From the NCBI GenBank assembly GCA_976226885.1, contig OZ320318.1, positions 55,118,001 through 55,182,000 on the forward strand: 64,000 nt of DNA, given 5' to 3'. A model generated the notes under the pieces. That model was given only the letters and a program-made list of their open reading frames with translations. It had not been told where the DNA came from and did no database searches. The position numbers and the translations under genes were made by a program. The stretch is from Iphione sp. A-MEVVRFRX5 (Eukaryota). Shown piece after piece: positions 19,120 to 59,700 of this stretch; within the stretch, counting starts at the first letter, position 1, and each line of letters opens with the position of its first letter.

Positions 19120-19163
<44 letters not shown>

Positions 19164-30327: not shown

Positions 30328-33300
30328 GGCTAGGTGGCAACGATTTGCCTCAACCTACACGCATTTACAGGCTCGTGAGCTCTCAGCGTGATTGAGCTTT
30401 GCTGCGATGCCTTGGTTCCTGCTCGCCATCATGCCATGTGAAGGGGTGGCACACTAACTGCACCCTGCGGTGAGCAGGCAGCCCTCCCTAGGAGCACCAC
30501 AATCCAGCATTTAATGATCCCTCACTAGTCTACGGTAGCGTCAGGGGAGCCGATGCTGGCGCCTCCTGTCAGCTAACGGTGTTACGATCGCCTGAAGTTT
30601 TTCTATACTGTCCGGCACGCTACCAGTCCTCGTAAGAGGACTGCATACTTCCGATGGTGGCTGGGTAATGTAGGCATGAATGGTCGGTGACGTGTAGCAG
30701 TTCTCGATGTAACCGCAGAGTGTACCAGTTCGGGCTAAAAAGTTTCATCTTCCAGCACAAACCTGTGTGACACTATAACTTAGCATGCATATCCTAGTTC
30801 AGCATTATAAATCAGTGCTGGTCTCGCAGAATGTAACAAAAATCCCTACTGCATGTCATTCGTGCTTTCATCCTGAACCCGTTTCCAAATTCGCAAAGTC
30901 ACGTTAAATCACTTTAGCGAAGCGTACATTCCCCCTGTGATAGCGTAGTCTCCTTCCGTGTGTACTATAGTGTCTCTACCACTCTACCGTGCTGGAAATG
31001 TAGAAGCTAGGTTAAAAGGATCACAATTTCAGCGACTCAAACAAGACATATGCATGGCTGGGTATAAACAGCGTCCTTATCTAGAACCGAGTTGAATAAA
31101 TATCTTCCCATGTTCTCCTAACAGTCGAGATAAAAAGAACAGCAGCCAGACTAGACAGATGGAGTAAAATACCTTTATGAGTTTCCGCTTCAGTAAACTT
31201 GAAAAGATGTAACCGTAGAAAAGATACGGTTTGGACTCGGCCCAATAACAATATATCAGGGGCGAGGATGACACTGAGGGCAGCACGTTGTCGATTGTGG
31301 CACACCTGGTGAGAGGTAACTTTAAAACGCCCACATGCAAACCTTTCTTCCCAGACACTAATATACAGTTATGCGATCGCGTCTATACGAAAAGCGACGC
31401 CCGACACAAGGCATATCCGGGAAATAAAAGTAATTCAAGCTTTTAAAATCATCAACATGGAATATTATGTTTCTTTCTGTCAATGTTGTCGAATCACCCC
31501 TCTCCCCTGATATTCATAATAAGTGGAAGACAGAAGAGCGTACATGTAAAATAAGAAAGGCCCTATTGAATAGGGAACTACATACATGTACTCTCAATAA
31601 CACACGAACAGATTACCGAGCATTCCTTGACCTAGGCTAACCTAGTAAGCGGAAAAAACTGAGCCAAGAACACCGTCCATCCTGATATTGATGGCGTAAC
31701 TCGTTCGCAAGCTTTTGATGTTCATTGTCATATTAACCAGGCATTGATCTTGTGAACAAAGCTGCAATTAAAGGCCTGGCTGTTATTGATTACCTACAGA
31801 TCATAGTCGGACCAGAAAGGAATATACGTACACGCAAGTGATGCGCAAATGTCCTTCATTGCCTTCTGCTATAAATATATATTCACCATTTCACGTTTTA
31901 TCCTAAGGTTTCCAATGACCAGACTTGTACTGTATGGAGCATAATGATAACTATTTATATATTTTATCATCTGAAACAATCTCCTGTAACGGACCATTTC
32001 GGATTAATCATGATTAACGCTCGTCTATAGGCTTAGAGAAATACTAGGTCACCTCTCCTGTTTAGTATAAGTATTTGATCTCGCTGGGTACCAATCTATG
32101 CAATATTTACCGTAAAGGCATGTATCTTTTATACCTTAGTCAACCTACCTCAATACCTCAATACCTCAGTCAACCTATCTCAATACACAAAGAACGACTA
32201 GAAAAATACAGACTGACCTTGATTTGGCTAAAGAATTTCAAAGGAACGTATTGAACGTTTGGGGAACAACTGTCCGTTTGTTTGGGCAGGGACGCCAACA
32301 TAAACTCGAATAAATAAAACCAACTCATAGCCACATATCGCATTTCTTCTCTGCGAATAGTCTGGGTTTAAGGATTGTATCACATGCAATAAGTCTGTAA
32401 AAGACCGTGGGATATGTTTATGTCACCCGTTCCATTTGTAACCATCAATCCGTAAACCAGTTGCAAAACGTCTGTACAAAGTCTAACATCGCAAACACAC
32501 TGCTCTTCCTACCTTGGCTAGGGGCTATTCAAAAGGGGCTATAGCAAAAGCTTGATCTTCCCTACACCTGACCGAACGCACCTTGCTGGGACTGCTCCCA
32601 GGGGCGCTTTGACATATCAACTGGACAGATGACTGCAATTTACGTACCAATTTACCATAAACACAACAGATCAGAAGCTACGACAGTAAGTGTTTGACCC
32701 ACTGCTTAGCACTAAAGTCATCCCATGTTTTGAACGCGGTAATCCAGAGTAGAACCCCGGTGAGAGTTGATATCAAAAAGACTAGCAAAATAAATCAATT
32801 CGGGCTATTAAGGAAGGGAATGAATTCTAATACTAAATATAAAATGCATGTAGGGTGCTGACGACTTATCGGTCTTGGTCTGCACATCAGACTTGCTTAG
32901 ATTGAGAGGGGTGGCTACTAAAGTGATAGATAATGTGTCTACATGGTTCCCTAATGAGAGATTGCTTTTGAGTGTGGTGAAATGTGTCTACCTGCCAACT
33001 GGAAAGGCAGCAGACATCCCTATTGACCTGTAGGCCCACGACAAGGCGCTCTTGAGGGAAACCAGCACCAAGTTACAGGGGTACACAACTGATGGAAAAC
33101 TCAGGTTGGGAGATAACATGAGGGCGGTGAAGAGGATGACCTGGGCCTCTACCGATTGATTAGATAGGGTGAAGTCGTACTTAACACTCGTGGTACAGTT
33201 AAAGCTGTTCGGCTCTCTAGTGTTGCCAAATGTGTACTATCATGCTGCTCTGCTGTATGGACTATCTGCATCCCGTGGGTTCAGCATGCAAGTCCACATG

Positions 33301-33790: not shown

Positions 33791-35071
33791 GGCCCGGTAC
33801 CCATGCATCAATATCAATATTGCTGTGCCAATGGCGTTTCATCTACGCTAAGAAAGATTGAGAAGGGTGTACCCCAAGGCTCAACCCTTGGTCCATTGTT
33901 ATTCTCTGTTTTTATAAATGACATGCCAGCAGTTGTAAATGAAGACATCACCCTGTTTGCGGACGATACCTTAATCTTAGTGAATGATAAATGTCCGGTT
34001 AAACTGCAGCAAAAATCTCAAACATCTATGGAGAAATTGACTAATTGGTGCAACAATAACAAATTAGTCATGAATATCGCCAAAACAAAAATTCTGCCTG
34101 TATATTGTAACAATGCTGAACCTAATCAGGGTATCTTTATTGGCTCAGAGGAAATTGAATATGTTTCTGAATACACATACCTGGGAATAATTTTAGACAA
34201 GTCAATGAAATTTAAATCTGAAATTGATAAAGTAATTAAGAAGGTACTTCAGAAGGTAAGCTTATTGTACAGGTTAAAACCTTATTTGAATGTATCAGAT
34301 ATGATAAGAGTATATAAAGGATTCATTCAGCCACATGTTGATTATTCAACGGCTATGTTGAACTGTTGTAGTAAAAAGGATCTCAACAGGTTGAACAAAT
34401 TACAAGACAGAGCTTTAGCCATAATATATACAAACTCCCCCACCTACAAACGATCCAAAGTAATGCTATCCAGTCATGATCTGCATATTGCCCTCAACTG
34501 CATGAAGATTACTGATAGAAGAAAAATGTTCACTGTCTGTATTATTCACTGTCTACATCTTCATGGTCTGTTACCGAAGCAAAAACCCACCTCTACAAGA
34601 CAACATGATGCCACAACTCTACTTGTCACCAAACCAAAAACTGAACTTGTAAAAAACTCTATTCATTACCATGGTTTAAACCTATGGAACGGTCTTGACC
34701 CAATGATTAGAGAAATTGAATCAATGGACATATTCAGAGTACTGACCAGATTTACTAAATAATCATTAACATTCAATCATTGCTTCAATAATTGCTTTTC
34801 TCTTCTCTGTCCAATTTGAAAAACACAAAAATTCTGTATTCCATTGTATCTGTGATATGTATGTATATAGATGTATGCATCCATTCTACAATAACGTCTC
34901 AAAGAGGCGAAGTACGGATGAAATAAATTACTTCTTATCTTATCTTATCTTATCTTTATCCGGAGATTTTTTCCACACTGTCGGTAGTCCAGAAAAATAC
35001 GCTGTTTTCCGGACATGCACGGACACCCAGTTTCCATGCACCCAGACTTGATTCTCCCTTTCTCCCTGTCT

Positions 35072-45550: not shown

Positions 45551-46104
45551 GTTGCTCAATTAGAAAGGTGTGTTAAATACTTCACAATACAGCTTCAGAA
45601 AAAGACGACTTAGTGCCACACATGAGTGTTATTCACCAACTAGATGAAGTGGGAGCAGGCAGTAAACTAATAAGATTAGTGAGAAGTTACCTCTCCCTAT
45701 GAAAACACTTTGTAAGATGCAAAGACGGTGACTCCAGCTGCAGGATTCTCAGACAGGGGTCCTGCAAGGGTCTGTGTGTGACTCACTTCCATAGTATACA
45801 TCAGCTGTGGTGTATGCCGACGATATGACTGTTTTGGCATATGCAAAGGACCCCTACAACTAAGGAAAATGGCCCCAAACACCCTAGAGCGTGTGATTAG
45901 GGCTTGGTCTTGAGTTGAGTGGTACCAAAATTGAGCAAGTGGGTGTAATGATCCTATTAGGGCTCATTGTAGATGATAGACTCAATTTTATAGAGGAACG
46001 CAAAAAGTAAGGAGGAAGTTGTGTGAAGTGGCATTGAAGATGCTGGTTAAGAAGAGAAGCTTGCCGGCTGTTCATAATCAGATGGCCATGTCACTCATTC
46101 CTAT

Positions 46105-46546
46105 TGTAAGACGTGGATGAATAAAGATGTGAACAACTCAGAGTCCAGTTCCAAACTGTTTATTACCTTCCAAAGTCAGAGTTTATATAGCCCATAGGGG
46201 CCACAGTCAGCCAATCAGGAAGTCAGACATGTTCCTCAACCAATCAGAAATCAGGGCCATTAGTGGCAACAATGTATCACACTTAAAGAAGCATCTCAAC
46301 CAATCAGTGCCTACCCTCCGACATGAGATACAAAGTAATCAATTTTGGAACGCCCCCCCACCAATCAGAGAGCTCCCCCCATTTAAGGAAGTGTGGGGTG
46401 ATCTGCTGTTGACCAATCAGGGTATAGCACCCGGCAGTGGAAATTTCCATACAAACGTGCGTGCGGTGTTCCTGGGGAAACCGGTGCACTATCTGGTTTG
46501 GGTGTGGTGTGTCAAAGTCCTATCTGGTGCGCCAGCCTATTCTACA
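46105..46546 (-). repeat. 3' LTR (442 bp)
   Basis: Five CCAATCAG boxes (46211, 46240, 46300, 46361, 46413); on the minus strand TATATAAA (46189-46182) and AATAAA (46164-46159). Adjacent to the PPT. Confidence 0.97.
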
Positions 46547-46560
46547 CTCTCCCTACCTTT
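46547..46560 (-). promoter_or_regulatory. Polypurine tract
   Basis: Minus strand AAAGGTAGGGAGAG directly abuts the TGTAGA start of the 3' LTR. Confidence 0.9.
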
Positions 46561-47168
46561 AAAAGAAAACCCCCCACCAAATCGACCAATCTTAATCGCT
46601 TTAAGCGGTTATAAATAACACAGAGGGGGTTAAGGGGGAGGGGCTCCAAAAAAATAAAATATGTGGTTTCTTACCCCAATGGTGTCTTCCATTGTCCTTC
46701 CTAACGTTCCTCGTTAACATCTTAGCGTCCTTCTTAAACTTGCCGACGGGCTATCAACATCTCAAATATCTGTTGTCCCTAATCCTCGACATATGTTTTC
46801 CCAGAGCCAACGGGCTCTCTAACAAAACTTGGGTCAAATACTTTGTTTGGGGCCAACTGGCCTTGTCATATGGGTCAACTTCTAAAAAAAATCACAGGGC
46901 TATCCCTACTTCTTGACATGTGCTTCCTGGAGCCAGTAGGCTCTCCAGCAAATCCGACATCCTCCAGTCCTCCGGGGCTACCATACCTCAGTCTAAGATA
47001 ATGCTTAATCATGTATACACTTCTGGAGGGCCAACGGGCCCTCCAACAAACCTCTAATTGTCTTACCGAATGTCCTCCGATCAATAACAGCTACAAGGTA
47101 ACAGTCCTTAATCTATAGGTTCTTCCTAACACCAGCGAATGTTCCGACCTGGACCCAGCTGTGCTGCT

Positions 47169-48710
47169 CTAATCTAAAAGGTAGGTCACTGGGTTAGCGT
47201 TCTTGCAGACGTCCACCATCGTGGGGTTTTCCCGCTCTTGATGTCTTCTGGCTGTCTCGGCTTCGTCGTGCCATAACCGTACCGTCTCTTCCGACAATGT
47301 CGGTGCCAAGGGGTTTGAGGGTCGCCAGTCTCTTATCTTCTCTAGTGCTGCCTGTATGGTTTGGTTATGAATCTCGGTGAGATTCTGAATGGGCTCCCAT
47401 TCTCCCCGCGATGGTGCCGCAGTCCCATCCAAAATCAGATATGGCCTCTTCTGTAGTGGTTCTAAGAGAGAATGGGGCATCTGAGGGTCCTCAGCTAGTT
47501 GGAGCACCCATGCCAATGACAGTCCTGCTATCAAGCGTGCTCCATTGCTAGCTGCTTCCCACCCTCGTGGTGGCCAGGTGAGTCCCGAAGGCAACCGCAC
47601 CCATGCTGGTGTTGGATCCTGCCGTACCACTGCCGGGTTACTCCCTATCCGTCCGTCTAGAAATCTTTCTAGATAGTCTTCCACCTTCCGTCGTCTCGAC
47701 CCCTCCGGGATGGCTTCTTGTAGAATGGCCCACAAGTCCCCTTCTTCCGTGGACGTTACATTAGACTCCGGTGATCCTGAGTCTTCTTTCCTCGATGTGT
47801 CAGGTCTGGTTGATGGTCTCAGGCCGGCAAGAGGGGATTCTGGCGTCGTTTCGGGCTTAGTTGTTGATGTTCCCTTGGTGGCGGGTATCAGTTGTGCACA
47901 CCTCTCCGGGGTTTCGTACTCCATTGGTACAACCAATGGTGTAGAACCAACAGATGACTTCCCTTGACAACGCTCTCTTAGATCCGGGAATCCTACCTGA
48001 TGAGACACGAACGTTGGGGGTCCTTGTCTGTCTCTCATTGTAGGCTCTCCGTGTTCTCCCCCAGCCACTTGCTCGGTAGTTGTCTCCTCTGTTGATGTAA
48101 GATCATCGTCACTCTGGGGGGTCCTTCGCCGCTTTCTGGTAGGGGAGCCGGCTAAATTAATGTCCTTGCGTCTTCTTGGTGGCGTCCCCTCGGCTGCAAC
48201 TTTCTTCTCTTTTGGAGTAGGTTCAAGAGGGACAGCCTCCTCCTCGGAATCTTCTTCCTCCCCAAGGACCACGGTGTTCTCCTTTGCGTAGCGCACCCAA
48301 GCTTCGACTCTCTCGCGGGATGAAGACTCCCCTTGCTTCCAGGCCCTCTGCAACTTGGAAATAGTCCAAGACGTCCAGTCTGCAGGGACATCTGCTGTCT
48401 CTTCTCCTTGTACGACTTGGTAGAGTGGGTGGTAGGTGCGCCCCGTGAGACCCAGGTTCACTGCCCAGGTGTGATGCCTGTTGTAGTGACGCTTCCACGA
48501 GAAGGTATTGATGCAGGTCTGAGGGCAGATTAAGCACGCCATCAGTTGGCTGTTATCGTGGTACGTCCTGACGTGCTTCCTCAACGACTTCTGTGAGGGG
48601 AAGATTTTCCTCTCCTGACACTGGTCACATAGTGTATATCCCTCTGGAATGGCTTGTCCTTCTTTTAAGACTCTTGGGGGTTTCTCTGGAAATTTCTTCT
48701 TTCTCGGCAT
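47169..48710 (-). CDS. Accessory ORF: 513-aa protein with two N-terminal C2H2 zinc fingers and NLS-like basic clusters
   Basis: CDQC-x14-H-x4-H with F-x5-L-x2-H, and CLIC-x12-H-x3-H. Basic clusters MPRKKK, PPRRRK, TRKRRR. Uninterrupted, inside the LTR pair; no signal peptide or TM, so not env. Confidence 0.85.
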   Translation of the reverse strand: MPRKKKFPEKPPRVLKEGQAIPEGYTLCDQCQERKIFPSQKSLRKHVRTYHDNSQLMACLICPQTCINTFSWKRHYNRHHTWAVNLGLTGRTYHPLYQVVQGEETADVPADWTSWTISKLQRAWKQGESSSRERVEAWVRYAKENTVVLGEEEDSEEEAVPLEPTPKEKKVAAEGTPPRRRKDINLAGSPTRKRRRTPQSDDDLTSTEETTTEQVAGGEHGEPTMRDRQGPPTFVSHQVGFPDLRERCQGKSSVGSTPLVVPMEYETPERCAQLIPATKGTSTTKPETTPESPLAGLRPSTRPDTSRKEDSGSPESNVTSTEEGDLWAILQEAIPEGSRRRKVEDYLERFLDGRIGSNPAVVRQDPTPAWVRLPSGLTWPPRGWEAASNGARLIAGLSLAWVLQLAEDPQMPHSLLEPLQKRPYLILDGTAAPSRGEWEPIQNLTEIHNQTIQAALEKIRDWRPSNPLAPTLSEETVRLWHDEAETARRHQERENPTMVDVCKNANPVTYLLD

Positions 48711-48783
48711 CCTGGACTAAGTCTGGCAACCCAGACGAGTGTGACGTAGGTATGGATGTGTGTGTTGGTTGACTCAGGGTTTG

Positions 48784-48885
48784 GCTGACTATGAGTAGCT
48801 GACTGTGAGTAGCTGACTGTGAGTAGTTGACTGTGAGTAGCTGTTGTAGTGACGGTATGATGTGAGTAGTTGTTGTAGTGACGGT
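48784..48885. repeat. Short tandem repeats upstream of the zinc-finger ORF
   Basis: Four ~14-bp GCTGACTGTGAGTA units, then two TGTGAGTAG(C/T)TGTTGTAGTGACGGT units. Confidence 0.8.
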
Positions 48886-49189
48886 CAAATCTAGTGTCCC
48901 CAAGGCCTGGACCCCTTGCAATCAGTCTCCTGTTTAGGGTACCCCTCCTAAGTAGGTTGATAAGAACTGACCTGAGTATGGTGCGCCCCTTCTTTCTTGA
49001 TCCTGATGTCTGTAGTAGATGACAGCTGGTTATTTACGGTTCTTCCCCTTCTATCAGCTGCTATTCACGTTACAACCACCTAAGTGTGGTAGGAAAACCC
49101 TAGTTTTGCTTCTAATTTCAGAAAAACGTTGTCCGTTTTCGTAATTTCTGCCGAAATCGTCTGCTGATTCTAGTTCTCCGCACTGCCTC

Positions 49190-49735
49190 GTGGTGGCGCC
49201 CCAGTGTTGGTGCGCTTCGAGTGCGGTGCGACAAGCATTTTCATTCAAACTTGGTCTTTTTCGTCTCGGATGGGCTTCATCGCAGGGGTGTTGCGTTGTC
49301 CACATACATTTCCTCGTTTTCGTGCTGTTTTTTAGGAAAGTCTGTGTGTTTCTGTACGATATTCGACCGGTGCGACGGCTTTAGTTCTTCTAAGTGCTGT
49401 GTGGTGGCGCCCCGATGTTGGTGCGCTTCGAGTGCGGTGCGCCAACTAGTTTCGTTCGACTCGCGAAAATGGAAGATTCTGATGTCTCGGGTGGGCTTCA
49501 TCGCATGGGTGTTGTGTTGCCAACATACATCTCCTCGTTTTCGTGCTGTTTCTTCGGAAAGTCTGTGTGTTTCTGTACGATATTCGACCGGTGCGACGGC
49601 TTTAGTTCCTCTAAGTGATGTGTGGTGGCGCCCCGCTGTTGGTGCGCTTCGAGTGCGGTGCGCCAATTATTTTCGTTCGACTCGCGGTCGGTGACGAAAA
49701 TGGAAGGTTCCGATGTCGTTGTGGCCCTATTTAAG
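49190..49735. promoter_or_regulatory. Internal promoter-like block: 2.4 copies of a 211-221-bp repeat ending at a TATA-like box
   Basis: GTGGTGGCGCCCC...TGGTGCGCTTCGAGTGCGGTGCG starts at 49190, 49401 and 49622. TATTTAAG at 49728-49735, with a CCATT initiator-like A 31 nt downstream (49759). Confidence 0.6.
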
Positions 49736-49814
49736 CTTCCTTGAGATGATTCGATGCCATTCAGCCCTAAGTACTTTCTTCAGGCAGCTGTCAACATCTC
49801 TTCACCTCCTCATC

Positions 49815-51279
49815 ATGGAAATGTGAGTTTTTGCTTGTCTCCCTTTGGCAGGATATCCTTGCTTGTCACTCCACCGCCATTGTTTATGTTATCCGGTGGC
49901 CTACTTGCATCTTCTGGTACAGGTTGATCAGGTATTTCTATTCATTTCCTGATATTTCCTCCTGCTCCATGATGATGTGGGTATCCCTCGGTACATTTCC
50001 ATGTGGTTTCGTATGCCTATTCTATGTCTATCCATGTCTTTCTCTCTCTAAAGGGATTAATTTTCACCCCTGTCACTATGCTGCATGTTGTCAAAGCATT
50101 ATTAGTTCTCACCCCTGTCACTATGATGCATGTTGTCCAGCATTGTGTACCACGGGGTCTGGTCCCCTAAGTGCCGAGGGGTCCTTGCCCGGTTACCTGT
50201 CTATGATAGCTGGTGGGGTCTTCAGGCTCTCGCTCATTTTCTGTCATTCTTTACCAGGGTTGACTCCCCTCCTTCAATTCTTGTAGGCATCACGTGATGG
50301 ACGATCCTGTTCGAGGTGGTTATGCACCCACTGACCCAAGGTGAGTGTTGTTAATTTTTAACAGTCTCCCAGTTTCTTCCTTCCTTCCCCCAGGTTTCCC
50401 GCAGTTCTCTGATGTCTGTTGCCTGTCTCTCTATCCCACAGGTACGGCGACGCTGCAGTGCCCGCTCCTTATGGTGTTGTTCCCGCGCCCGTTGAGGATT
50501 TCCCGTAAGTTACCAGTTAACGTCCTGTCTTGAGCGGAAACCGTACCTAGTCTCAGTCTTCCTCCGTTTAATTTTCTTCTAGTGTCCACTGTGCTCACAG
50601 GTTCGCCGACCTTGTGTTTTCCAGAGGTGCCCCTTACGTCGATATCTACTCTCCGGGGCCTCGGCTGCGTGTCTCTGGTGTCCGGGCCGCCCCGGAGGCC
50701 CCTTTTTACCTGGATGTGCCGGGCCATCTGGCCCTCTACGGGCCAGGATATACCATGGACCTGTCCTTACGCCGCAGTGACGACATCCTGACGGGTATCC
50801 TTGCAAGTGACCCGGCGCAGCCGACCACTATCGTCTGGCCTCGTGATGCAGCCCCGGTCGCTGGGGTTTGGCCCCAGGATGAGCCCCTGCCGTCACCGCG
50901 TTCCTTGGATGCGTACCTCGGTGGAGGGGACGGATGGGCTACGGTGGACAATGCCAGTACCTCCAGCTCAAGTGGTTATGCGACCGAATGGGAGTACGCT
51001 AGCATGACCACAGAGGTACTCGACCCTGGTCTCACTTCCGGGGACGATAGCAGCGACACATCAGATGTTCCAACACTAGTCAATCAAGGATCAGGGGGGT
51101 CTGCTCCAGCCTCACCCGATCCATCGACGTCGTCGAGCGTCTATGACACCCCCACTCGTTCGCCAGAGCTGCCGCCTGGACTAGATGTAGCGATCTTCGG
51201 GGCCTGGTGTGATGGCCTGGCTCCGGGAGATGCGCCGTTCTGGCCCATCTATGTCTCTTCCGACGAGGATGAAGATTAA
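49815..51279 (+). CDS. Spliced antisense accessory gene of the Gypsy element; 267-aa acidic, Pro/Ser-rich, lysine-free protein of unknown function
   Basis: Exons 49815-49822, 50287-50340, 50442-50504, 50601-51279. Donors GTGAGT, GTGAGT, GTAAGT with pyrimidine-rich acceptors, all phase 2, giving 804 nt open. Kozak aTCATGG, TATTTAAG at 49728, AATAAA at 51323. Confidence 0.75.
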
Positions 51280-51322
51280 TATCGTTTCACCTCCACTGCT
51301 TCCGTTGACATGTGCTTCTGGC

Positions 51323-51328
51323 AATAAA
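51323..51328 (+). terminator. Poly(A) signal for the antisense gene
   Basis: AATAAA 44 nt after the TAA stop, followed by a GT/T-rich tract (TTTGTGTCTTCTTGTCTTTCC). Confidence 0.7.
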
Positions 51329-51509
51329 ACTAGTAGACCTTCATATTTGTGTCTTCTTGTCTTTCCTCTCTAGCTAGCTAGCTTAGATAGTGTCACTGTG
51401 GTATCAATGTTTTCATTCTTGTTCTCCTAGGTTCTCCGTCGCGAAACCTGAAGCACCCTCCTGGACTTCACCATTCCAGAATCTTCCTGAGTTGGGTCCA
51501 TAGACTCAT

Positions 51510-51785
51510 TCCCAGGGCACTTCTCCGCATCCCGCTCCTCCAGGACTTTCGAGCTGAATCCTACGACTCACTCCCGGGGCACTTTCCTGCATCCCGCTCC
51601 TCCAGGACTTTCGAGCTGAATCCGAAGATTCACTCCCGGGGCACTTTCCTGTATCCCGCCACTCCAGGACTTTCGAGCTGAGTCCTTCGACTCACTCCCG
51701 GGGCACTTTCCTGCATCCCGTCACTCCAGGACTTTCGAGCTAAATCCGAAGATTCGCTCCCGGGGCACTTTCCTGTATCCCGCCG
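51510..51785. repeat. 62-bp tandem array (~4.4 copies) just after the pol stop
   Basis: GGGCACTTT recurs at 51515 (variant), 51577, 51639, 51701 and 51763. Confidence 0.9.
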
Positions 51786-51799
51786 CACCTGTCTTAATT

Positions 51800-54700
51800 T
51801 TAAACTAAGTTCTTGCGTCGCCACGACACGATCCACTTCGGTGGAGGTGATTTACGGTATGGTCTGAGTCGGTTCCGATGTATCACTTTTGGTTTCGCTG
51901 ACTTGGACTTTACTACCACAATTCGTCCAGGATCGAGGATGCGCACCGCTAACCATGGTCCCGTCCAAGGGAAGTGTATCTTTGGGCTCTTCCCCTTTGG
52001 AGGTTGGGCGTTGTGTAACCATAAGGCATCCCCTGCCGTTATCTCTTCTTGCTTCACCCGCTTATTATATTGCAGGGCCTGGGACTTTGCAGCTTGTTGG
52101 AGGTTTTCCCGAGTCTTCCGGTAGGCCGCCTGTAATCGTGCGTGTAGTCGGACGACCGCGTCGGGGTAGGTTTGTTGTTCTTCTTGCTCTTCCGGGTACC
52201 CATCCATTACATGTGCAGGCAGTACGACCTCCCTCCCAAACATGAGGTAGTTTGGTGTATACCCTGTACTGCTTTGTGGCGACGAGCGATACGCCATCAT
52301 TAACATAGGGAGTGCTTCATCCCACTCGGTATCTGTCTCAAAACAGTAGGCCTTGATCATGCGGCCCAGGGTCCTGAAGCTCCGTTCAATGAAGCCATCT
52401 CCCTGTGGGTGGTGGGGTGTCGTCCTCGTCTTCTTTATTTCTAGTAGGTCACACAGTTTAGCCATGACATCGCTACAGAAGTTGGTGCCTTGATCACTAT
52501 GAAGTTCCCTGCAGCATCCGTAACGGGCGATCACTTCCTCCATCAGTATTCGGACGATGCGTTCTGTCTTTTGATCAGGCATGGCGAATGCCTCGAGCCA
52601 CTTAGTAAAATGGTCCCCGACCATCAGAATGTATCGATTCGACCGGGACGTGACCGGGAGTGGGCCAGCTACATCCATGGCCCATCGTTCCATAGGTTCC
52701 CCGACTACATATGACTGGAGGCGGGTGCATGGTCGTTTCGGATTCTGGTGTAGTAGTGCACAGTGACAGTTCTTACAAACTTGTTCGACGTCTCCCTTCA
52801 TCCCTGGCCAGTAATACAGAAGAGACACCTGAAAGTGTGTTTTGTCAGTTCCCAGATGTCCACCCGCCACACCACCATGAGTCTGCATGACGGCTTCCTC
52901 TCGTCGTATCCTTGGCAACACAATTTGGAGTCGGGTGTATTCTGTATCGGTTCCTATCCATCGCCGGCACAGGATCCCTTTGTTCACCTCCAGACGATAC
53001 CATTGGCGCCATAGGCTTTTGGCCACGGTCGAGAGGGGGGATACCGCTTCCCACGGTGGTTGTGTCGATTCTTTTTCCATCAGTTGAAGGATGGGTCCAA
53101 TGTCTTCGTCCGCTAGTTGGTCACGGCGTAATTCAGTATCCCTTGCCCCAGCTGCACGTGCTCGAGTAATGGCTGCGACTGTTGGACCCAGATGTTCTTC
53201 TCCACATTGTCTACACGGTATTCGAGATAGTGCATCTGCATTCGCGTTGTTCTTTCCCGGACGGTGTTGAAACTGTACTTGGTACTGGCTTATGCGCTCT
53301 AGCCAACGGGCCAATTGTCCTTCTGGGTCTCGTATTCTGCTTAGCCAACTCACGGCGCCATTGTCGGTTCTCACCATCACGGGTTGTCCGTATAGGTAGA
53401 AATGGAAATGCTTCAGTGCCGCCACGACTGCCAGCAGTTCCTTTCGCATCGTGCAGTATTTCCTTTCGGCAGAGTTCAGGCTCCGGCTGAAATAGCCTAG
53501 TACCACCTCTCGTTGGTCCTGTTCCTGAGACAGCACGGCGCCCAATCCGACATTACTCGCATCCGTGTCCAGAAGATATCTGCCCACTGATCTCGGGAAT
53601 CCCAATATGGGGCTAGATGCCAGCTTGCCTTTTAGTTCCTTGAAGGCTGTGAGTTCATCTGGGCCCCATGTGAAGGTGGTTCGAGCGCCCGTCAACCGGT
53701 TCAGTGGCGCTGCCACGTGAGCAAAATTTGGCACAAACCTTCGATAGTAGGAGCAAATTCCCAGGAATGCTCGGACATCTGTGGTGCAAGAGGGAACTGG
53801 CCACTCTGTGATGCTTCGTGTTTTCTCGGGGTCGGTGGCCACCCCTTCCTGAGAGATACGATGCCCCAGGAAGTTGATCTCCCGCATGAACAGCTTGCAC
53901 TTAGTCGGTTTTAATTTCAGTCCGGCTGCCTCTATCCTTGTCAACACATTATCAAGTCGGTTCAATGTTTGTTGAAAATCAGTACCAAACACGAGTACAT
54001 CGTCGAGGTATACCAGGCATTGCTCCCACGACAGCCCTCGCAATACTGTGTCCATAAGTCTCTCAAAGGTCGCTGGTGCGTTGACTAACCCAAATGGCAT
54101 CACGGTGAACTCATAAAGGCCCAGGGAAGTAGAGAAGGCTGTCTTTTCCTGATCTTCTGGATGCATCCGAACCTGCCAGTACCCGCTTGCTAGATCTAAC
54201 GAGCAGAAATACCTGGCACCTGCCAGCATGTTGAGTGAATCGTCGATGCGTGGGAGGGGGTATGCATCCACCTTGGTTTTCTGGTTGAGTTTCCTATAAT
54301 CTACACAAAATCTGGTAGTGCCATCTTTCTTTTTTACCATAACCACAGGACTGGACCATGGGCTACGACTCTGACAAATCACCCCCAGCTCCTCCATCTC
54401 CCGTACTAGTTTTCTCTCTTCCTCTCTGCGGCTAAACGGTAATCTCCGGGGCGGTTGTTTAACCGGTTGAGCTGTGTCGGTAAAGATACGGTGTTGTACA
54501 GCATCGGTCTGTCCCATATCCGCTTTTCCCCGCGCTAGGGTGTGGCGATGGTCCCACAACAGTCTACTCAGCTCATCTCTCTGAGCGGGGTCCAGTGTAT
54601 CTTGTGTGTCTTTGAGCAATTTTTCTATTATCTCCCGGTAATCCTGATCAAAGCTCGGTTTCTGGGATTCCTCTCTCACTTGGCTGACTCTTCCCACGGG

Positions 54701-55399
54701 TGTCTGACTCACCGGAGTTCCCATCGCTACCATTGTCCCCTTGCGTAGACTAACTTCCATTTGAGATACATTCCATAATGGTACCACCGTCTCGGGTCCG
54801 CCTTTGATCACACAACGGACCCCTACTATGCCTTGTTGAATCAGAGACTCATGTACTCCTTCTACCAGCAGAGGATGATCAGTCCCTCCCTGCACCTTAG
54901 CAGACATCCCGGAATTGGGGGGTAGTTTGAGTTCCTCGGTTATATACAATTCGGTGGGGCCTAGCTGCATTACTCTTCTACATTCCTGACCAGTTGCTCC
55001 TAAAGAAAGTTCTCGCGTTTCTAGATTAATGATGGCCCGATTCTGTTTCAAAAAGTCGTTTCCGATAATTCCATCCCCTTCTATGTCCGCGAAGATGAAC
55101 TCATGTGCAAATTCTTCTTTTCCCACTCTGAACTCTAAAATTTGGCTCCCCTGAGTAGGGATAACGTGTCCTCCGGCTCCCACAATCCGCGTGGGGAGCC
55201 CCGTGGAGACTAGGCCAGGGATAACATGGGGGTTCACAATGGATACTTCCGCCCCTGTATCTACGAGTAAAAGGAGTTGCCTCCCAAAAATGCTCACCTT
55301 TAGATACAGTCCCCGGTCTGTCTCCATCGTGCTCCCCAGGCTTAGTGGGGCGGTCGATCCGTCCTGGCCTACTGGCTGGTCGACCGCTGTGCGTTTCCC
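51800..55399 (-). CDS. pol: Pol polyprotein (protease, RT, RNase H, integrase), entered by -1 frameshift
   Basis: Protease LVDTGAEVS; RT YPLPRIDD, MPFGL, YLDD; RNase H TDASNVGLGAVL, ELLAVV, TDNG; integrase H..H..C..C, MDVAGP, HSDQG, IERSFRTL; GPW (GPY/F-like) tail. The ORF-track frame is open 55708-51800 without stops. Confidence 0.97.
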   Translation of the reverse strand, partial: GKRTAVDQPVGQDGSTAPLSLGSTMETDRGLYLKVSIFGRQLLLLVDTGAEVSIVNPHVIPGLVSTGLPTRIVGAGGHVIPTQGSQILEFRVGKEEFAHEFIFADIEGDGIIGNDFLKQNRAIINLETRELSLGATGQECRRVMQLGPTELYITEELKLPPNSGMSAKVQGGTDHPLLVEGVHESLIQQGIVGVRCVIKGGPETVVPLWNVSQMEVSLRKGTMVAMGTPVSQTPVGRVSQVREESQKPSFDQDYREIIEKLLKDTQDTLDPAQRDELSRLLWDHRHTLARGKADMGQTDAVQHRIFTDTAQPVKQPPRRLPFSRREEERKLVREMEELGVICQSRSPWSSPVVMVKKKDGTTRFCVDYRKLNQKTKVDAYPLPRIDDSLNMLAGARYFCSLDLASGYWQVRMHPEDQEKTAFSTSLGLYEFTVMPFGLVNAPATFERLMDTVLRGLSWEQCLVYLDDVLVFGTDFQQTLNRLDNVLTRIEAAGLKLKPTKCKLFMREINFLGHRISQEGVATDPEKTRSITEWPVPSCTTDVRAFLGICSYYRRFVPNFAHVAAPLNRLTGARTTFTWGPDELTAFKELKGKLASSPILGFPRSVGRYLLDTDASNVGLGAVLSQEQDQREVVLGYFSRSLNSAERKYCTMRKELLAVVAALKHFHFYLYGQPVMVRTDNGAVSWLSRIRDPEGQLARWLERISQYQVQFQHRPGKNNANADALSRIPCRQCGEEHLGPTVAAITRARAAGARDTELRRDQLADEDIGPILQLMEKESTQPPWEAVSPLSTVAKSLWRQWYRLEVNKGILCRRWIGTDTEYTRLQIVLPRIRREEAVMQTHGGVAGGHLGTDKTHFQVSLLYYWPGMKGDVEQVCKNCHCALLHQNPKRPCTRLQSYVVGEPMERWAMDVAGPLPVTSRSNRYILMVGDHFTKWLEAFAMPDQKTERIVRILMEEVIARYGCCRELHSDQGTNFCSDVMAKLCDLLEIKKTRTTPHHPQGDGFIERSFRTLGRMIKAYCFETDTEWDEALPMLMMAYRSSPQSSTGYTPNYLMFGREVVLPAHVMDGYPEEQEEQQTYPDAVVRLHARLQAAYRKTRENLQQAAKSQALQYNKRVKQEEITAGDALWLHNAQPPKGKSPKIHFPWTGPWLAVRILDPGRIVVVKSKSAKPKVIHRNRLRPYRKSPPPKWIVSWRRKNLV
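55336..55399 (-). promoter_or_regulatory. -1 programmed ribosomal frameshift signal (G GGA AAC + H-type pseudoknot)
   Basis: Slippery heptamer at 55399-55393 in the gag frame, 5-nt spacer, stem 1 GCGGUCGA/UCGACCGC, loop CCAGG pairing with downstream CCUGG. Confidence 0.8.
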
Positions 55400-56262
55400 T
55401 GATTTGGTGTCGAGGTTGCTGTGGTGGTCACCAATTCCGGGCAGTCTCGGCGAAAATGACCAGGTTTGCCGCATTGAAAGCAATTGTTGTGCTTGGGTCG
55501 TGACTGGGCTCGCCTCTGTTGGAGTTCCATCCGTAATTTTTCCATCTCCTGTGCGAGAGTCTCTTCGATCTGTTTTCGGAGCGCCTCTTGAGTCGGTGTT
55601 GATGAATTTTCGGTTTGCAGGGCGCGAATCTTTCTCTTCTGAAACCGTTCTTGAAGTTCTACGGCCTGTATGGCCTCTTCCAATGTCTTGCAACCCTTCT
55701 CCAGGCATTTGAGATGTAGGTCTTCTGATAGAGCCTTCTGAAAAGTAGAAACTGTGGTGAGTTCCCGTGTCTCTTTGTCTACGTCCCCGTACGCGTTCTT
55801 CACTACGCGGCGTACGCGGTCTGCGAAGTCTCGGATGTCCTCTCCAGGTTTCCTCTTCGTGGTAGCGAGGTCTTGCATAGCTGCGAGGCGGTCCCGCCCT
55901 CGCCCGAAACGTTCACTTAGGGCTGCTACCTTACCTCCATAAGTGGAACGTTCCTCCCTGGACAGATCCCCGTAGAACGCTCGAGCACGTCCGGTTAGTG
56001 AAAGTCCTAGGACTGCCGATTTGGTTTCGTCCGTCCAGTTGCATACACCTGCCCATTCTTCGAATTGGGCCAGCCAGCCGTCCCAGTCACTCTTACCGTC
56101 GTATCGTTCCGGTCGTAGTGCATTCAACCTCATTGGCTCTTCCGGGGCGAGCACAAATGGTTCCACTTCTTCCTCTCCATCGCCCCCTGCCTGACCTGGC
56201 AGTGGAGAGGGAATCCGCAACTGGACCTCGTCGTCCACATCCACTATATGTGCATGAGCCAT
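55369..56262 (-). CDS. gag: Gag (297 aa) with CCHC zinc knuckle
   Basis: Retrotransposon capsid-like 'PERYDGKSDWDGWLAQFE...LSLTGRARAFY' and CFQCGKPGHFRRDC. ATG is 5 nt after the PBS. Confidence 0.93.
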   Translation of the reverse strand: MAHAHIVDVDDEVQLRIPSPLPGQAGGDGEEEVEPFVLAPEEPMRLNALRPERYDGKSDWDGWLAQFEEWAGVCNWTDETKSAVLGLSLTGRARAFYGDLSREERSTYGGKVAALSERFGRGRDRLAAMQDLATTKRKPGEDIRDFADRVRRVVKNAYGDVDKETRELTTVSTFQKALSEDLHLKCLEKGCKTLEEAIQAVELQERFQKRKIRALQTENSSTPTQEALRKQIEETLAQEMEKLRMELQQRRAQSRPKHNNCFQCGKPGHFRRDCPELVTTTATSTPNQGNAQRSTSQ

Positions 56263-56267
56263 ATCTT

Positions 56268-56285
56268 ATCCCACCGCTGCCACCA
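56268..56285 (-). promoter_or_regulatory. Primer-binding site complementary to tRNA-Leu
   Basis: Minus strand TGGTGGCAGCGGTGGGAT, 3 nt from the LTR, is complementary to ATCCCACCGCTGCCA+CCA, the 3' end of metazoan tRNA-Leu(AAG/TAG) as I recall it. Confidence 0.9.
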
Positions 56286-56288
56286 AAT

Positions 56289-56730
56289 TGTAAGACGTGG
56301 ATGAATAAAGATGTGAACAACTCAGAGTCCAGTTCCAAACTGTTTATTACCTTCCAAAGTCAGAGTTTATATAGCCCATAGGGGCCACAGTCAGCCAATC
56401 AGGAAGTCAGACATGTTCCTCAACCAATCAGAAATCAGGGCCATTAGTGGCAACAATGTATCACACTTAAAGAAGCATCTCAACCAATCAGTGCCTACCC
56501 TCCGACATGAGATACAAAGTAATCAATTTTGGAACGCCCCCCCACCAATCAGAGAGCTCCCCCCATTTAAGGAAGTGTGGGGTGATCTGCTGTTGACCAA
56601 TCAGGGTATAGCACCCGGCAGTGGAAATTTCCATACAAACGTGCGTGCGGTGTTCCTGGGGAAACCGGTGCACTATCTGGTTTGGGTGTGGTGTGTCAAA
56701 GTCCTATCTGGTGCGCCAGCCTATTCTACA
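56289..56730 (-). repeat. 5' LTR (442 bp)
   Basis: TGTAAG...TCTACA on +. No difference from the 46105-46546 copy by eye. Adjacent to the PBS. Confidence 0.97.
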
Positions 56731-59700
56731 CTATGGTACACAGCAGCGATACTATATTTGATTCCTCCATCAGGGGTGCTGTAAACATTCAGGCAAGATC
56801 ACTGAGGTACAAGGGTTTCAAAGCATGGAAGGCCCTCCCTAGGTCTGATAGAGACGTAGGATTTAAAAACCATTGTGTGATTTTAAAAATGTTATAAGAA
56901 AGAATTATATTGCACTATTGTAACTTTTGTACATATACTTCTAAATCTATTTCCTGTCATTTATTTTTGTAGTATTACCTTCACTGGAAGACCTCCTGTC
57001 CTGAGTTAATCAAGAAGTAAATAAAAGAATTTCAAATCCAAATGGGTCACTAAAGGAACAGTCCGGGCTGGATCTGAAAAAGCTCCAGGTGGAGGCAGTA
57101 CCCTTGGAGCAGTGGTGGTTGTAGCCTGCTATGAGATCCTGACAATTCAAGAAGTCTGTGAATTTGACAATCTTGTAATCATATAGGTATTCTCTTGCTA
57201 GGTTCTCACATGACGAAATACTGGTCTAGCATAGATATCAGAACAGAGAGGAAGGATAGGGTTCTAGGGTGTGTGGTCAGGACAATAGGAAATTTCCAAC
57301 ATCTGCAGCTCTGCTTCATTGCTAGTTTCATTTTTTAGTAAGAATCTCAAAGGAAAACTGCAAGACTGTGTGACAGAACATTGCAGATCAGTAGGCTAAC
57401 ATGAGTGGGAACTGTGAGAAGGCGGCACACTGGATATTCAAACCAGTAATGTAATTGAAGTATGATGCTTCCTCAATCTGCAACATGTTGTTTGATGACA
57501 AACTTCTCTGGTAATACATTTGTACCATTAGAAGAAAATGAATCATGGCAATAAAGATCACATCTCTGCTTAATAGGATGAACCTTGTGTGAATCAAACT
57601 CGAGTTTATGTCCAGCTGACTGGACTCTTACAGATGCCAGTGCACTTTCGCTGTTACTCAGGGACAGCAACTATGATTTAACTTGCTTAGAGATGATTTG
57701 TTTTGTACTGGAATAATTGCCTAGTGATGAATTTGTAATGTAACCAAACTTTATCAAGTATTACCTTAGATATGATTCTGATTGTTATATAACGTATATA
57801 GATGTATATCGACATGTCTAGTAGTTGTGGGCTAGCGGCCCCATTTTTCTACTTAATGCAGTGTCTTGCCTTGATTTATACATATACTAGTCAGGAAGCC
57901 ACTTTTGTTTCTGTTTGATTGTGTTACATTTTTTATTCCCACGAAAAAATCTGTCCTGATGAGAATGAGAATAAACATAATCAATTCAATTCAAGTGTTC
58001 TAATAAAGATTTAATTACTCAGTATATGGAATCAATCTAATATAAAGGTGTCACTTGGGTATAGTCGTAAACTTTCAGGGAATATAAATACCTGTAACAC
58101 ACAATACATGCATTTTAATGCTTACATGATAAAATTATACGATGAAACCTCTAATCAGGACCTACTCACTTCCTTACCCTGCTGCCTGTAATTGAAGGAT
58201 CGCCGATTTACGTAATAATGTCCAAATAACGCCATGTCTCTGACAGTTTCCTGCCTGCTAAACAGCAAACTGTACGTACATTCGTGTTGCATTCTTTTGA
58301 CTTTATTACGTGATGTAACAATTTGTCGATTGAAAAGTATCAAGATTAGGAATATTGTGTCCCGAACCCACTTTCCTCCAATCCTGACGTATATTATGAC
58401 ATTGAAGGGAACAAACACCTACAGAGGAAAGTCCCTGATCATGACACACTTAGATCTTTCACTAACTGTCCCTATTTGCGACATATTTCCGTTAGAGGCC
58501 ACTTAAAATCGATGTGCATGTAGTATATAATCTGTTCTTTCTTAGAGCGCCCTGATAGGAGAGGTGTCCCACTTGGAGACGTGTTCATGATATGGCTATC
58601 CATCTGCTTTTAAATAGATTAGGCGACGTATTAAGTCCACAGGCCTCACACATCTTGGTGTAGCTACTTTGTCTGTCATCATCGTCTCCTCAAAACCTTT
58701 CCACATGTTGACTCTCTGATGGAAAACGTCACCTGACATAATAGGAGTGTAATTATGCATCTATTCATAATTCATGTATGTATTTATGCATCTATTCATA
58801 ATTCATGTATGTCCAGATTTATCTGCAAAACCAAAAATTTGGTAATATTATATGAAAATAGAAAAATGCAAAAATCACGACTAGTCAGTCAACCTTTCTC
58901 TCTTTGGTATAAAAACCTTTGCTATTCAAGTAAATCTCCGACCTCTCATGTGTTACCTTGGGAAATCTCTAGAATGATACTCTAATGGATCCCTTCATCT
59001 TCTGTGTAAGAGTCGCTTATTTACTCTTTGTCATACCTTCCTCCAGAAAGGATCCATTTTCATTGCTTGGCTTATCTGATGTGAAGTGACAATGCTTTAT
59101 GTGACGAAGGCCAAAATACTTTTATTCCAATAATGTGGACTATGGGGTAAGGAACGCTTCTTGTACACACGAATAAATGATATCTGTGTTATGTTGACCC
59201 AACAGACCGTATTTTCCTTTGTTTCTTATCTTTAAGTAGCCTTTTCCAGAATACGTAGAGCCACAAATGTAACTTTCCATTATTTGTAGTTCCTTTTGGT
59301 CAGGGTTTGTGCTTATATGGTCCCTTTTGTGGGAAACATGCTAAAAGTAAGGGTCACTAGAAATTAATTGAGCATTTAGTGTTAAATTTTGGATTGCCTG
59401 GCATATACGTGTAGCTTTATCACTAACATTCATTGTTAATTTCAGCTTCGTACCATATACTTTACATGGGTTTTTTTACTTTTGTGGTTTGAAGATAGTA
59501 TAAACATAAATATGTTTGTTAAGTGTATGTTTACTAAAACCACGAGTGTGATATGCAAATGAAAAGAAAGTTATGCAAGTTACTACCGAATCAAATTTGA
59601 ACATCAATATCGATATGAAGAATGTTTATTTGTAACATGTTTATTTTTTCAACACCGAAAGACTTCACTGAATGGAAGGAAAAGTATTTCAGACAAGGGC

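Follow-up and report, generated by a model that had tools for sequence, protein, structure and literature searches.

The element and the region downstream of pol

The window, a stretch of 64,000 nucleotides of contig OZ320318.1 from Iphione sp. A-MEVVRFRX5, contains a complete Ty3/Gypsy LTR retrotransposon of 10,626 bp on its minus strand (46105..56730), as defined by the LTRs, the target duplication and the Pfam domain order PR-RT-RH-IN. A 4-bp target-site duplication, CTAT on the plus strand, flanks the element at 46101-46104 and 56731-56734. The 5′ LTR (56289..56730, minus strand) is a 442-bp TG...CA repeat with five CCAAT boxes, a TATAAA at 56371 and an AATAAA at 56348. The 3′ LTR (46105..46546, minus strand), with its poly(A) signal at 46164-46159, is identical to it at 442 of 442 positions. 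The primer-binding site (PBS; 56268..56285, minus strand), which we take to correspond to tRNA-Leu, contains a 16-mer that is identical in three relatives (L007, L010 and L115). An intact gag with one CCHC knuckle (55369..56262, minus strand) is followed by an intact pol ORF (51800..55912 from stop to stop, minus strand) encoding protease, RT, RNase H and integrase. The pol ORF is in the −1 frame relative to gag, and a slippery GGGAAAC heptamer lies at 55399-55393.

TG...CA LTRs, a duplication of 4-6 bp, a PBS, a polypurine tract, a CCHC gag and the order PR-RT-RH-IN define Metaviridae, and the element has all of these. Of the named Gypsy clades considered, 412/mdg1, Osvaldo, MolGy and Gmr1, the last was rejected, as the element does not have its IN-before-RT order. 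With identical LTRs and intact gag and pol, the element is a very recent and apparently competent insertion of a Gypsy retrotransposon into the genome of an animal, whose exons in the window encode Frizzled and mucin-like parts. No second copy of the element was found in the window's flanks, and Rfam gave no matches.

The region between pol and the 3′ LTR is about 5.25 kb long and holds, in this order, a 62-bp tandem array, a predicted antisense gene, 211/221-bp repeats, an ATG-free leader, a third ORF (ORF3) and a hairpin-bearing 3′ region. The array of roughly 4.5 copies lies immediately 3′ of pol (51489..51798), and the 211/221-bp repeats comprise three copies of a GC-rich core (49171..49686). 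In the 3′ untranslated region (46547..47168, minus strand), hairpins were found at 47024-47045, 46803-46818 and 46677-46694, and a polypurine tract at about 46547-46561. Four perfect stems of at least 6 bp were counted, three of them distinct, against a null mean of 0.6, and 6 of 300 simulations reached this number. Both arrays and the hairpins had been noticed in an earlier sequence-only reading of the window and are indeed present.

ORF3 encodes a protein with two divergent C2H2-type fingers

ORF3 (47169..48710, minus strand) is intact and encodes a zinc-finger accessory protein of 513 aa, P0001. This confirms the ORF as first described, and its length is beyond chance, since in 1000 order-2 Markov simulations of the 5.25 kb from pol to the 3′ LTR no ORF was as long (median 162, maximum 324).

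Two C2H2-type fingers occupy residues 28-51 and 59-80 of P0001 (48471..48629, minus strand). Finger 1 (C28-x2-C31-x14-H46-x4-H51) has two extra residues, and finger 2 (C59-x2-C62-x12-H75-x3-H79) has Cys where Phe is usual and Trp where Leu is usual. Finger 2 fits the ligand spacing C-x2-4-C-x12-H-x3-5-H, whereas finger 1 has x14. The linker is not of the TGEKP type, and both fingers score below the Pfam curated cut-offs of families PF00096 and PF13894 (19.7 versus 27 and 16.1 versus 25.2), the PF00096 gathering score not being reached. On these points, and in having only two fingers and finger-only database matches, P0001 differs from the classical C2H2 proteins of these families, with which it shares two Cys2His2 ligand sets and the F/L-x2-H core of finger 1. 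The earlier claim of two canonical fingers therefore stands for their number and type, but they are not canonical. At helix positions −1, 2, 3 and 6, the residues are S-K-S-K and N-F-S-R; the Arg-x-Asp signature is absent.

Four basic clusters lie at residues 3-6, 179-182, 192-196 and 339-342, rather than the three NLS-like clusters first reported. The middle two form a bipartite NLS pattern (residues 179-196; 48123..48176, minus strand), a pattern match flanked by S/T-P-x-R sites, three of which were found in P0001 by pattern search. The middle of the protein (residues ~150-320) is acidic and rich in Ser, Thr and Pro, as had been proposed. Conversely, the description of the C-terminal region (residues 325-513; 47172..47738, minus strand) as Trp-rich and apparently folded needs revision. 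Trp is not special there, with 8 residues versus 6 in residues 1-150, and the fold is unconfirmed. The region is predicted to be helical at low confidence, and single-sequence AlphaFold gave pLDDT values of 38.3 and 38.7 for the whole protein and its C-terminus. Fold searches with the predicted structures returned only generic helical bundles (best Z 7.7), none at E 0.001. By eye only, residues 113-145 looked SAP- or Myb-like, but this reading had no Pfam support and was dropped.

The position of ORF3 had been likened to that of env. ORF3 does lie 3′ of pol, but not directly behind it, since a gap of 3.1 kb with the predicted antisense gene and the CpG-rich 221-bp repeats separates the two. 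In agreement with the earlier reading, no signal peptide was seen in P0001, whose N-terminus is basic, and no TM-grade segment was found (best 19-residue hydropathy 1.06). A Pfam search of the element detected no env family either, and together these results rule out an env or env-like ORF3.

Predicted transcription signals around ORF3

The first minus-strand AATAAA downstream of the ORF3 stop is at 46164, within the 3′ LTR as previously stated, and no ATTAAA occurs earlier. On the other side, the ORF3 leader (48711..49036, minus strand) contains a weak TATA-like TAAATAA at 49036-49030, a splice donor at 48971 (8.6 bits), a weak acceptor at 48723 (4.2 bits) and 14-bp repeats at 48784-48883. 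This leader is free of ATG over 317 nt, as were 181 of 10,000 shuffles.

A spliced antisense gene is predicted on the plus strand (49728..51328), with a TATA-like box at 49728-49735 and an AATAAA at 51323. Its predicted coding exons at about 50287-50340 (ATG at 50297), 50442-50504 and 50601-51279 are in one frame with all junctions in phase 2. The excess of splice signals in this gene was significant against order-1 but not against order-2 simulations. The terminal exon had no homologue at E 0.1 in a database search, the antisense ORF matched no Pfam family at E up to 1, TRP28 (PF04195) included, and the gene was seen in no relative examined. The 211/221-bp repeats have a CpG observed/expected ratio of 1.38 versus 0.68 in their flanks and a TATA-like box on each side, of which the minus-strand box is weak. 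We regard these repeats as a candidate internal, possibly bidirectional, promoter.

Composition of ORF3 and database searches

Fourfold-degenerate sites in ORF3 (A.35, C.25, G.25, T.16; n = 257) resemble those of gag (.36,.26,.22,.16) and pol, and are unlike those of the host exons in the window (.24,.22,.30,.24; n = 179). The composition is element-like along the ORF.

A word search with P0001 found no homologue. Using phmmer against 1.84 billion representatives, we obtained nine matches, each limited to the fingers and each to a multi-finger protein; no full-length host paralogue was found among these representatives. The best ESM Atlas scores for P0001 (0.84 and 0.82) are leads only. PHROGs gave no matches, and PDB sequences gave weak finger matches only, with no R2-type protein among the matches listed. 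Neither P0001 nor the sister-specific integrase pattern had a match in the viral, metagenome and genome collections. A search of 30 MAGs with the C-terminus of P0001 yielded three short matches (E 0.03-0.09), and the same kind of MAG search with the C-terminus of the L120 ORF3 recovered only itself.

C2H2 ORFs recur downstream of integrase in one Gypsy clade

A profile scan of GTDB genomes gave 78 loci related to the element, and a further 49 stretches were cut from genome G001. Many of the 78 lie in bacterial MAGs and are, by our inference, animal DNA that was co-assembled with the bacteria. Among the 134 sequences examined, 96 had an integrase that reached the C-terminus, and a quick integrase tree was built from 94 rows, with the duplicates L018, L020 and L117 dropped and P0020 added. 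The window element falls within a clade of 52 rows (SH-aLRT 99), its place inside the clade being left unsettled by the tree. Its nearest pol is that of P0020 (54%, 777 members), a sister with SH-aLRT 99. Database names of the pol matches read 'transposon 412', and the grouping of the element rests on the sequences collected here.

Of the 40 clade members that could be assessed, 32, counting the window element and the doubtful L156, have a sense ORF with one or more N-terminal C2H2 fingers 3′ of integrase, versus 0 of 25 outside the clade, with short contigs scored as assessable only if a finger was seen. The 32 positives, 27 from G001, four from G002 and the window element, come from three source genomes only and are not independent. 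Some of the 'LTR' limits are contig-end overlaps; in L013, L017, L019 and L024, true LTRs of 537-571 bp enclose the finger ORF. The ORF3s of L013 and L017 belong to protein clusters of 51 and 36 members, respectively. When five MAGs were searched with the finger alignment, 14 of the 25 matches adjoined an integrase, five of these being query rows, and 11 did not.

All 11 pairs of relatives' ORF3s had pN below pS, in local alignments that favour the conserved parts. For L017 and L019, dN was 0.033 and dS 0.215 over 152 codons; most other pairs were synonymously saturated. These values indicate that the relatives' ORF3s evolve under purifying selection.

Splice acceptors of at least 7 bits preceded the fingers in 10 of 24 ORF3s, compared with 63 of 720 control sites taken within integrase; the acceptor in the window has only 4.2 bits. 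The fingers start 0.1-1.6 kb after integrase in the relatives versus 3.2 kb in the window. The C-termini of the relatives' ORF3s vary and include Arg/Ser-rich tails (L007, L009 and L010), BTB (L152) and TatD (L061, L067 and L080). DNA binding is favoured for the ORF3 family by its recognition helices, in which position 6 of finger 1 is Arg or Lys in 22 of 24 rows and position −1 of finger 2 is Arg in 8 of 11. Four of the 11 have an R-x-D-N-x-x-R helix, which is the Zif268-type base-reading helix. Because the helices of P0001 lack the Arg-x-Asp signature, its own DNA specificity may be weak or changed.

Kinship of P0001 to the ORF3s of relatives

P0001 conforms to this arrangement, as it is encoded by a sense C2H2 ORF between integrase and 3′ LTR in an element whose integrase falls in the clade. 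Its finger 1 shares a rare five-residue gap between Cys and Phe with L007, L009 and L010, found in 2 of 82 host-protein fingers. Against a profile of the finger pair of these three relatives, P0001 scored 19.1 bits, and five zinc-finger proteins of hosts scored higher (up to 24.7), so that descent from the same ORF3 rests on position and spacing and not on score.

Comparison of P0001 with a profile of L118, L120 and L122 gave a probability of 11.6%. The L120 ORF3 (487 residues) aligns collinearly with P0001 as far as the final residues, and both have a W-P-P-x-G-W motif. The likeness of the two C-termini is suggestive, at z 2.7-3.6 against shuffles and third among 219 control C-termini. The post-finger domain of L013, L017, L019 and L024 had no match in P0001. 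We consider that P0001 belongs to the C2H2 ORF3 arrangement and that it probably, though not provably, goes back to the same ancestral ORF3.

The earlier view of ORF3 as element-encoded rather than a host passenger is supported by the clade-wide recurrence, the selection on relatives and the gag/pol-like fourfold sites. As finger ORFs recur 3′ of integrase across the clade and are under purifying selection in the relatives, the evidence indicates that ORF3 is an inherited accessory gene of an animal Gypsy clade and not a freshly captured host gene.

Discussion

Our preferred reading, to which we give about an even chance, is that the ORF3 product acts in the nucleus to regulate transcription or chromatin of the element itself. 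From the fingers and NLS patterns, a nuclear, nucleic-acid-binding role for P0001 is a reasonable inference. ORF3 would be translated from its own mRNA, produced in the relatives by env-style splicing. In the window, this mRNA would start from an internal promoter within the 221-bp repeats and have a short leader, spliced or not, or else be spliced from the 5′ LTR, and it would end at the poly(A) site of the 3′ LTR. The basic clusters would carry the protein into the nucleus, where the finger pair and the basic N-terminus would dock on the element's own DNA or chromatin. The disordered middle and the C-terminal domain would then recruit or block host co-factors, so that transcription of the element is raised or tuned. 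The finger pair would be a shared address label and the C-terminus an exchangeable effector.

The sequence-only reading had gone further and named the LTR, the arrays and the hairpins as possible binding sites of the protein. What we found for this is an 8-9-mer shared between the LTR and the 221-bp repeats, which is weak and not significant (P 0.07-0.4), while the P0001 helices lack Arg-x-Asp. Moreover, the LTR carries a full host-factor promoter of its own, with five CCAAT boxes and a TATA box, which is a point against self-regulation.

An alternative that we consider unlikely is that ORF3 acts on RNA like CERV of Cer1 or Rev of HIV, binding unspliced genomic RNA, for example at the 3′ hairpins or the 14-mer of the leader, and aiding its export or blocking its splicing. 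Strong splice donors are predicted in the genomic RNA at 55934 (10.6 bits) and 55297 (10.3 bits), and the frequent acceptors before the relatives' ORF3s imply that these elements must balance spliced and unspliced RNA. The Arg/Ser-rich tails of L007, L009 and L010 would also suit an RNA-binding role. According to the accessible part of PMC10309623, CERV of Caenorhabditis elegans Cer1 is a nuclear protein made from a spliced mRNA, with an NLS, a candidate zinc finger and proline-directed phosphorylation, and is needed for export of genomic RNA; the three S/T-P-x-R sites of P0001 would be comparable. However, no leucine-rich export pattern was matched in P0001, folding of the entire 3′ region is no better than that of shuffled sequences (z 0.34), and the conserved R-x-D-N helices of the relatives point to DNA.

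It is rather improbable that the fingers bind proteins and not element sequence, with ORF3 serving as a decoy or adaptor against host silencing such as the SUMO-dependent machinery. The degenerate recognition helices of P0001 would fit such a role, as would the weak resemblance that some relatives show in Pfam to the finger pair of ZNF451 (E 0.01-0.07). P0001 has a single SIM-plus-acidic pattern and the antisense protein has another at its C-terminus; gag and pol have none. This pattern was picked after viewing the sequence, though, and recurs in 1 of 17 relatives' ORF3s, so we dropped SIM as a conserved ORF3 feature; LxCxE, PxDLS and PxVxL motifs are also absent from P0001.

We hold it very unlikely that ORF3 is a tether for integration or for nuclear import of the intasome, as a trans-acting stand-in for the chromodomain of chromoviruses. 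The window integrase terminates directly after its last conserved motif, and the finger ORF of L115 is in frame with the integrase C-terminus, both of which would favour a tether. Yet an 11.7-bit acceptor lies just before an internal ATG in L115, for which reason its finger protein is probably made separately from integrase, and it is not evident how a nuclear protein expressed on its own would enter the particle. Finally, that ORF3 is a recently captured host zinc-finger fragment and functionless passenger is highly improbable: its database matches are host-type multi-finger proteins, the rest of P0001 has no close homologue and a single copy of the window family was examined, but the element-like composition, the lack of a full-length host paralogue among the 1.84 billion representatives, the clade-wide recurrence and the purifying selection all argue against it.

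The nuclear-regulator reading of ORF3 can be set beside several known systems. By description and not by sequence, CERV appears to be the closest functional precedent in animals. Like P0001, it is encoded by an animal Gypsy/Ty3 element and has an NLS, a candidate zinc finger and proline-directed phosphorylation (in P0001, the sites only). It differs in its Cys-rich candidate C4 finger, a leucine zipper shared with GAG and its proven RNA export, whereas P0001 has two C2H2 fingers, is encoded 3′ of pol and lacks an export pattern (PMC10309623, accessible part). Gypsy-type LTR retrotransposons of bdelloid rotifers also have non-env ORF3s between pol and 3′ LTR, encoding GDSL esterases, DEDDy exonucleases and coiled-coil or TM proteins. 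These vary between families and typically come from spliced messages, and the word 'finger' is absent from that source (PMC5408684).

The plant elements Retand, Grande and RIRE2 and the fungal Boty have a long region of 2.9-6.6 kb from pol to the 3′ LTR that contains tandem arrays and an antisense gene transcribed from an internal promoter, and the Grande GENE23 protein is nuclear, as described in the available sections of PMC7264820 and PMC11963269. The window element resembles the Retand/Grande type in its long 3′ region (5.3 kb), arrays and predicted antisense gene. In the same sections, the antisense ORFs of the plant elements carry TRP28 and their sense ORFs have no known domains; here, in contrast, C2H2 fingers are encoded by the sense ORF, and no homologue of the antisense gene was found. 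For a mussel element, an antisense mRNA is reported (PMC10974842, in part). VANC of the Arabidopsis VANDAL transposons, the model case of self-activation directed by motifs, acts through short tandem motifs, and the parts available of a 2019 review name only plant cases of anti-silencing encoded by transposable elements (PMC6719617). ORF3 as proposed would be similar to VANC as an element-encoded accessory protein acting on its own short repeated motifs, but VANC belongs to a plant DNA transposon and its function is proven (PMC6719617, in part).

Complex retroviruses combine a sense regulator 3′ of pol with an antisense gene, a layout that the window element, possibly with an internal promoter, would resemble. 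Tax is the sense regulator of HTLV-1, and foamy-virus Tas comes with an internal promoter. HBZ is the antisense gene of HTLV-1 (PMC11963269, in the sections available). The window element differs in being env-less and in that its layout is predicted only, and no sequence likeness would be expected. A C2H2 ORF3 is not mentioned in the accessible parts of PMC12440569, PMC13524379, PMC6338049, PMC6238403 and PMC2774666. Across the open-licence papers and preprints covered, we found no description of a C2H2 ORF3 family; Repbase, GyDB and subscription journals lie outside this scope and may annotate it.

Taken together, ORF3 is not an env and belongs to the C2H2 ORF3 arrangement that recurs within one Gypsy clade, and it plausibly works like a retroviral accessory regulator, as a 'self-regulator'. 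A bolder reading, possible but doubtful, is that this large env-less animal clade is organised like complex retroviruses, with a C2H2 address and an exchangeable effector that recognise the element's own DNA and activate it or shield it from silencing. In the window, a divergent spliced antisense partner around a CpG-rich repeat promoter would complete a two-gene self-regulatory circuit, the first animal counterpart of VANC.

Extra ORFs in LTR retrotransposons are already known; among nuclear regulators encoded by animal Gypsy elements, CERV was the only well-worked one that we found in the open literature. Annotation calls for caution, since Gypsy ORF3s may account for many of the small 'zinc-finger genes' that are predicted in the genomes of invertebrates. 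A recurrent, selected C2H2 accessory gene provides a defined family of proteins, together with defined candidate cis-sequences, for studying possible self-regulation or self-de-silencing by animal retrotransposons.

Predicted antisense gene

A spliced gene, antisense to the Ty3/Gypsy element and absent from the original note, is predicted on the plus strand at 49728-51328. Its region 49740-50650 carries seven acceptors and three donors of at least 8 bits on that strand, and no acceptor or donor of at least 8 bits was found there on the opposite strand. Order-1 simulations matched these counts in 11 of 500 and 4 of 500 cases, and order-2 simulations in 50 of 500 and 49 of 500. Internal exon lengths (54 and 63 nt) are divisible by three, as is that of a possible 9-nt exon (49923-49931), and the gene has its own AATAAA at 51323. 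A frame as long as the antisense one (235 codons), taken alone, was reached in 32 of 1000 simulations. The predicted product is acidic and proline-rich, and no homologue of it was found.

Short repeats

The 14-mer encoding the helix of finger 2 in ORF3, the C2H2-type accessory ORF (48478-48491), occurs twice more in the leader of ORF3 itself (48841-48854 and 48870-48883); a repeat of this length was reached in 5 of 1000 simulations. These leader copies may be a local duplication or a cis-element. A 14-mer is also common to the 3' regions of ORF3 (46913-46928) and the antisense gene (51305-51320), in the same orientation. Every copy of the word GGCGCACC runs in the sense direction of the element; the copies lie in LTR U3 (46526, 56710), ORF3 (48435), its leader (48980) and two 221-bp repeats (49436, 49657), and nowhere in 53 kb of window flanks, a post hoc and weak pattern.

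Other features of the window

The exons of a host gene (14284-19487, minus strand) encode a signal peptide, a threonine-rich mucin-like stretch and a Frizzled domain (Pfam E-value 3e-16), and one exon is, as judged by eye, SRCR-like; this make-up suggests an invertebrate host. The window also holds a non-LTR retrotransposon RT fragment (33791-34762, plus strand) and a 250-codon open frame (29602-30354, minus strand) with no Pfam matches.

Relatives of the element

Bacterial MAGs G001, G002, G004 and G006 yielded 155, 12, 35 and 38 pol matches and contain many intact animal Gypsy elements, which we infer to be co-assembled host DNA. The sister pol, P0020, shares 54% identity with that of the window element; its cluster has 777 members, on long contigs. 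At locus L115 (G001:C1091), a finger ORF lies 3' of the integrase, in the pol frame and with a strong acceptor before it; the start of the ORF may resemble the histone H3 N-terminal tail. The ORF3 of L152 (7326-9089) combines an N-terminal finger with a C-terminal BTB/POZ domain (E-value 6.6e-13). Within the window element's own integrase clade, the ORF3s of L061 (2827-6129), L067 (9097-11439) and L080 (10551-13166) end in a TatD DNase domain (E-values 1e-33 to 2.5e-41) and have a finger-like motif in their interior.
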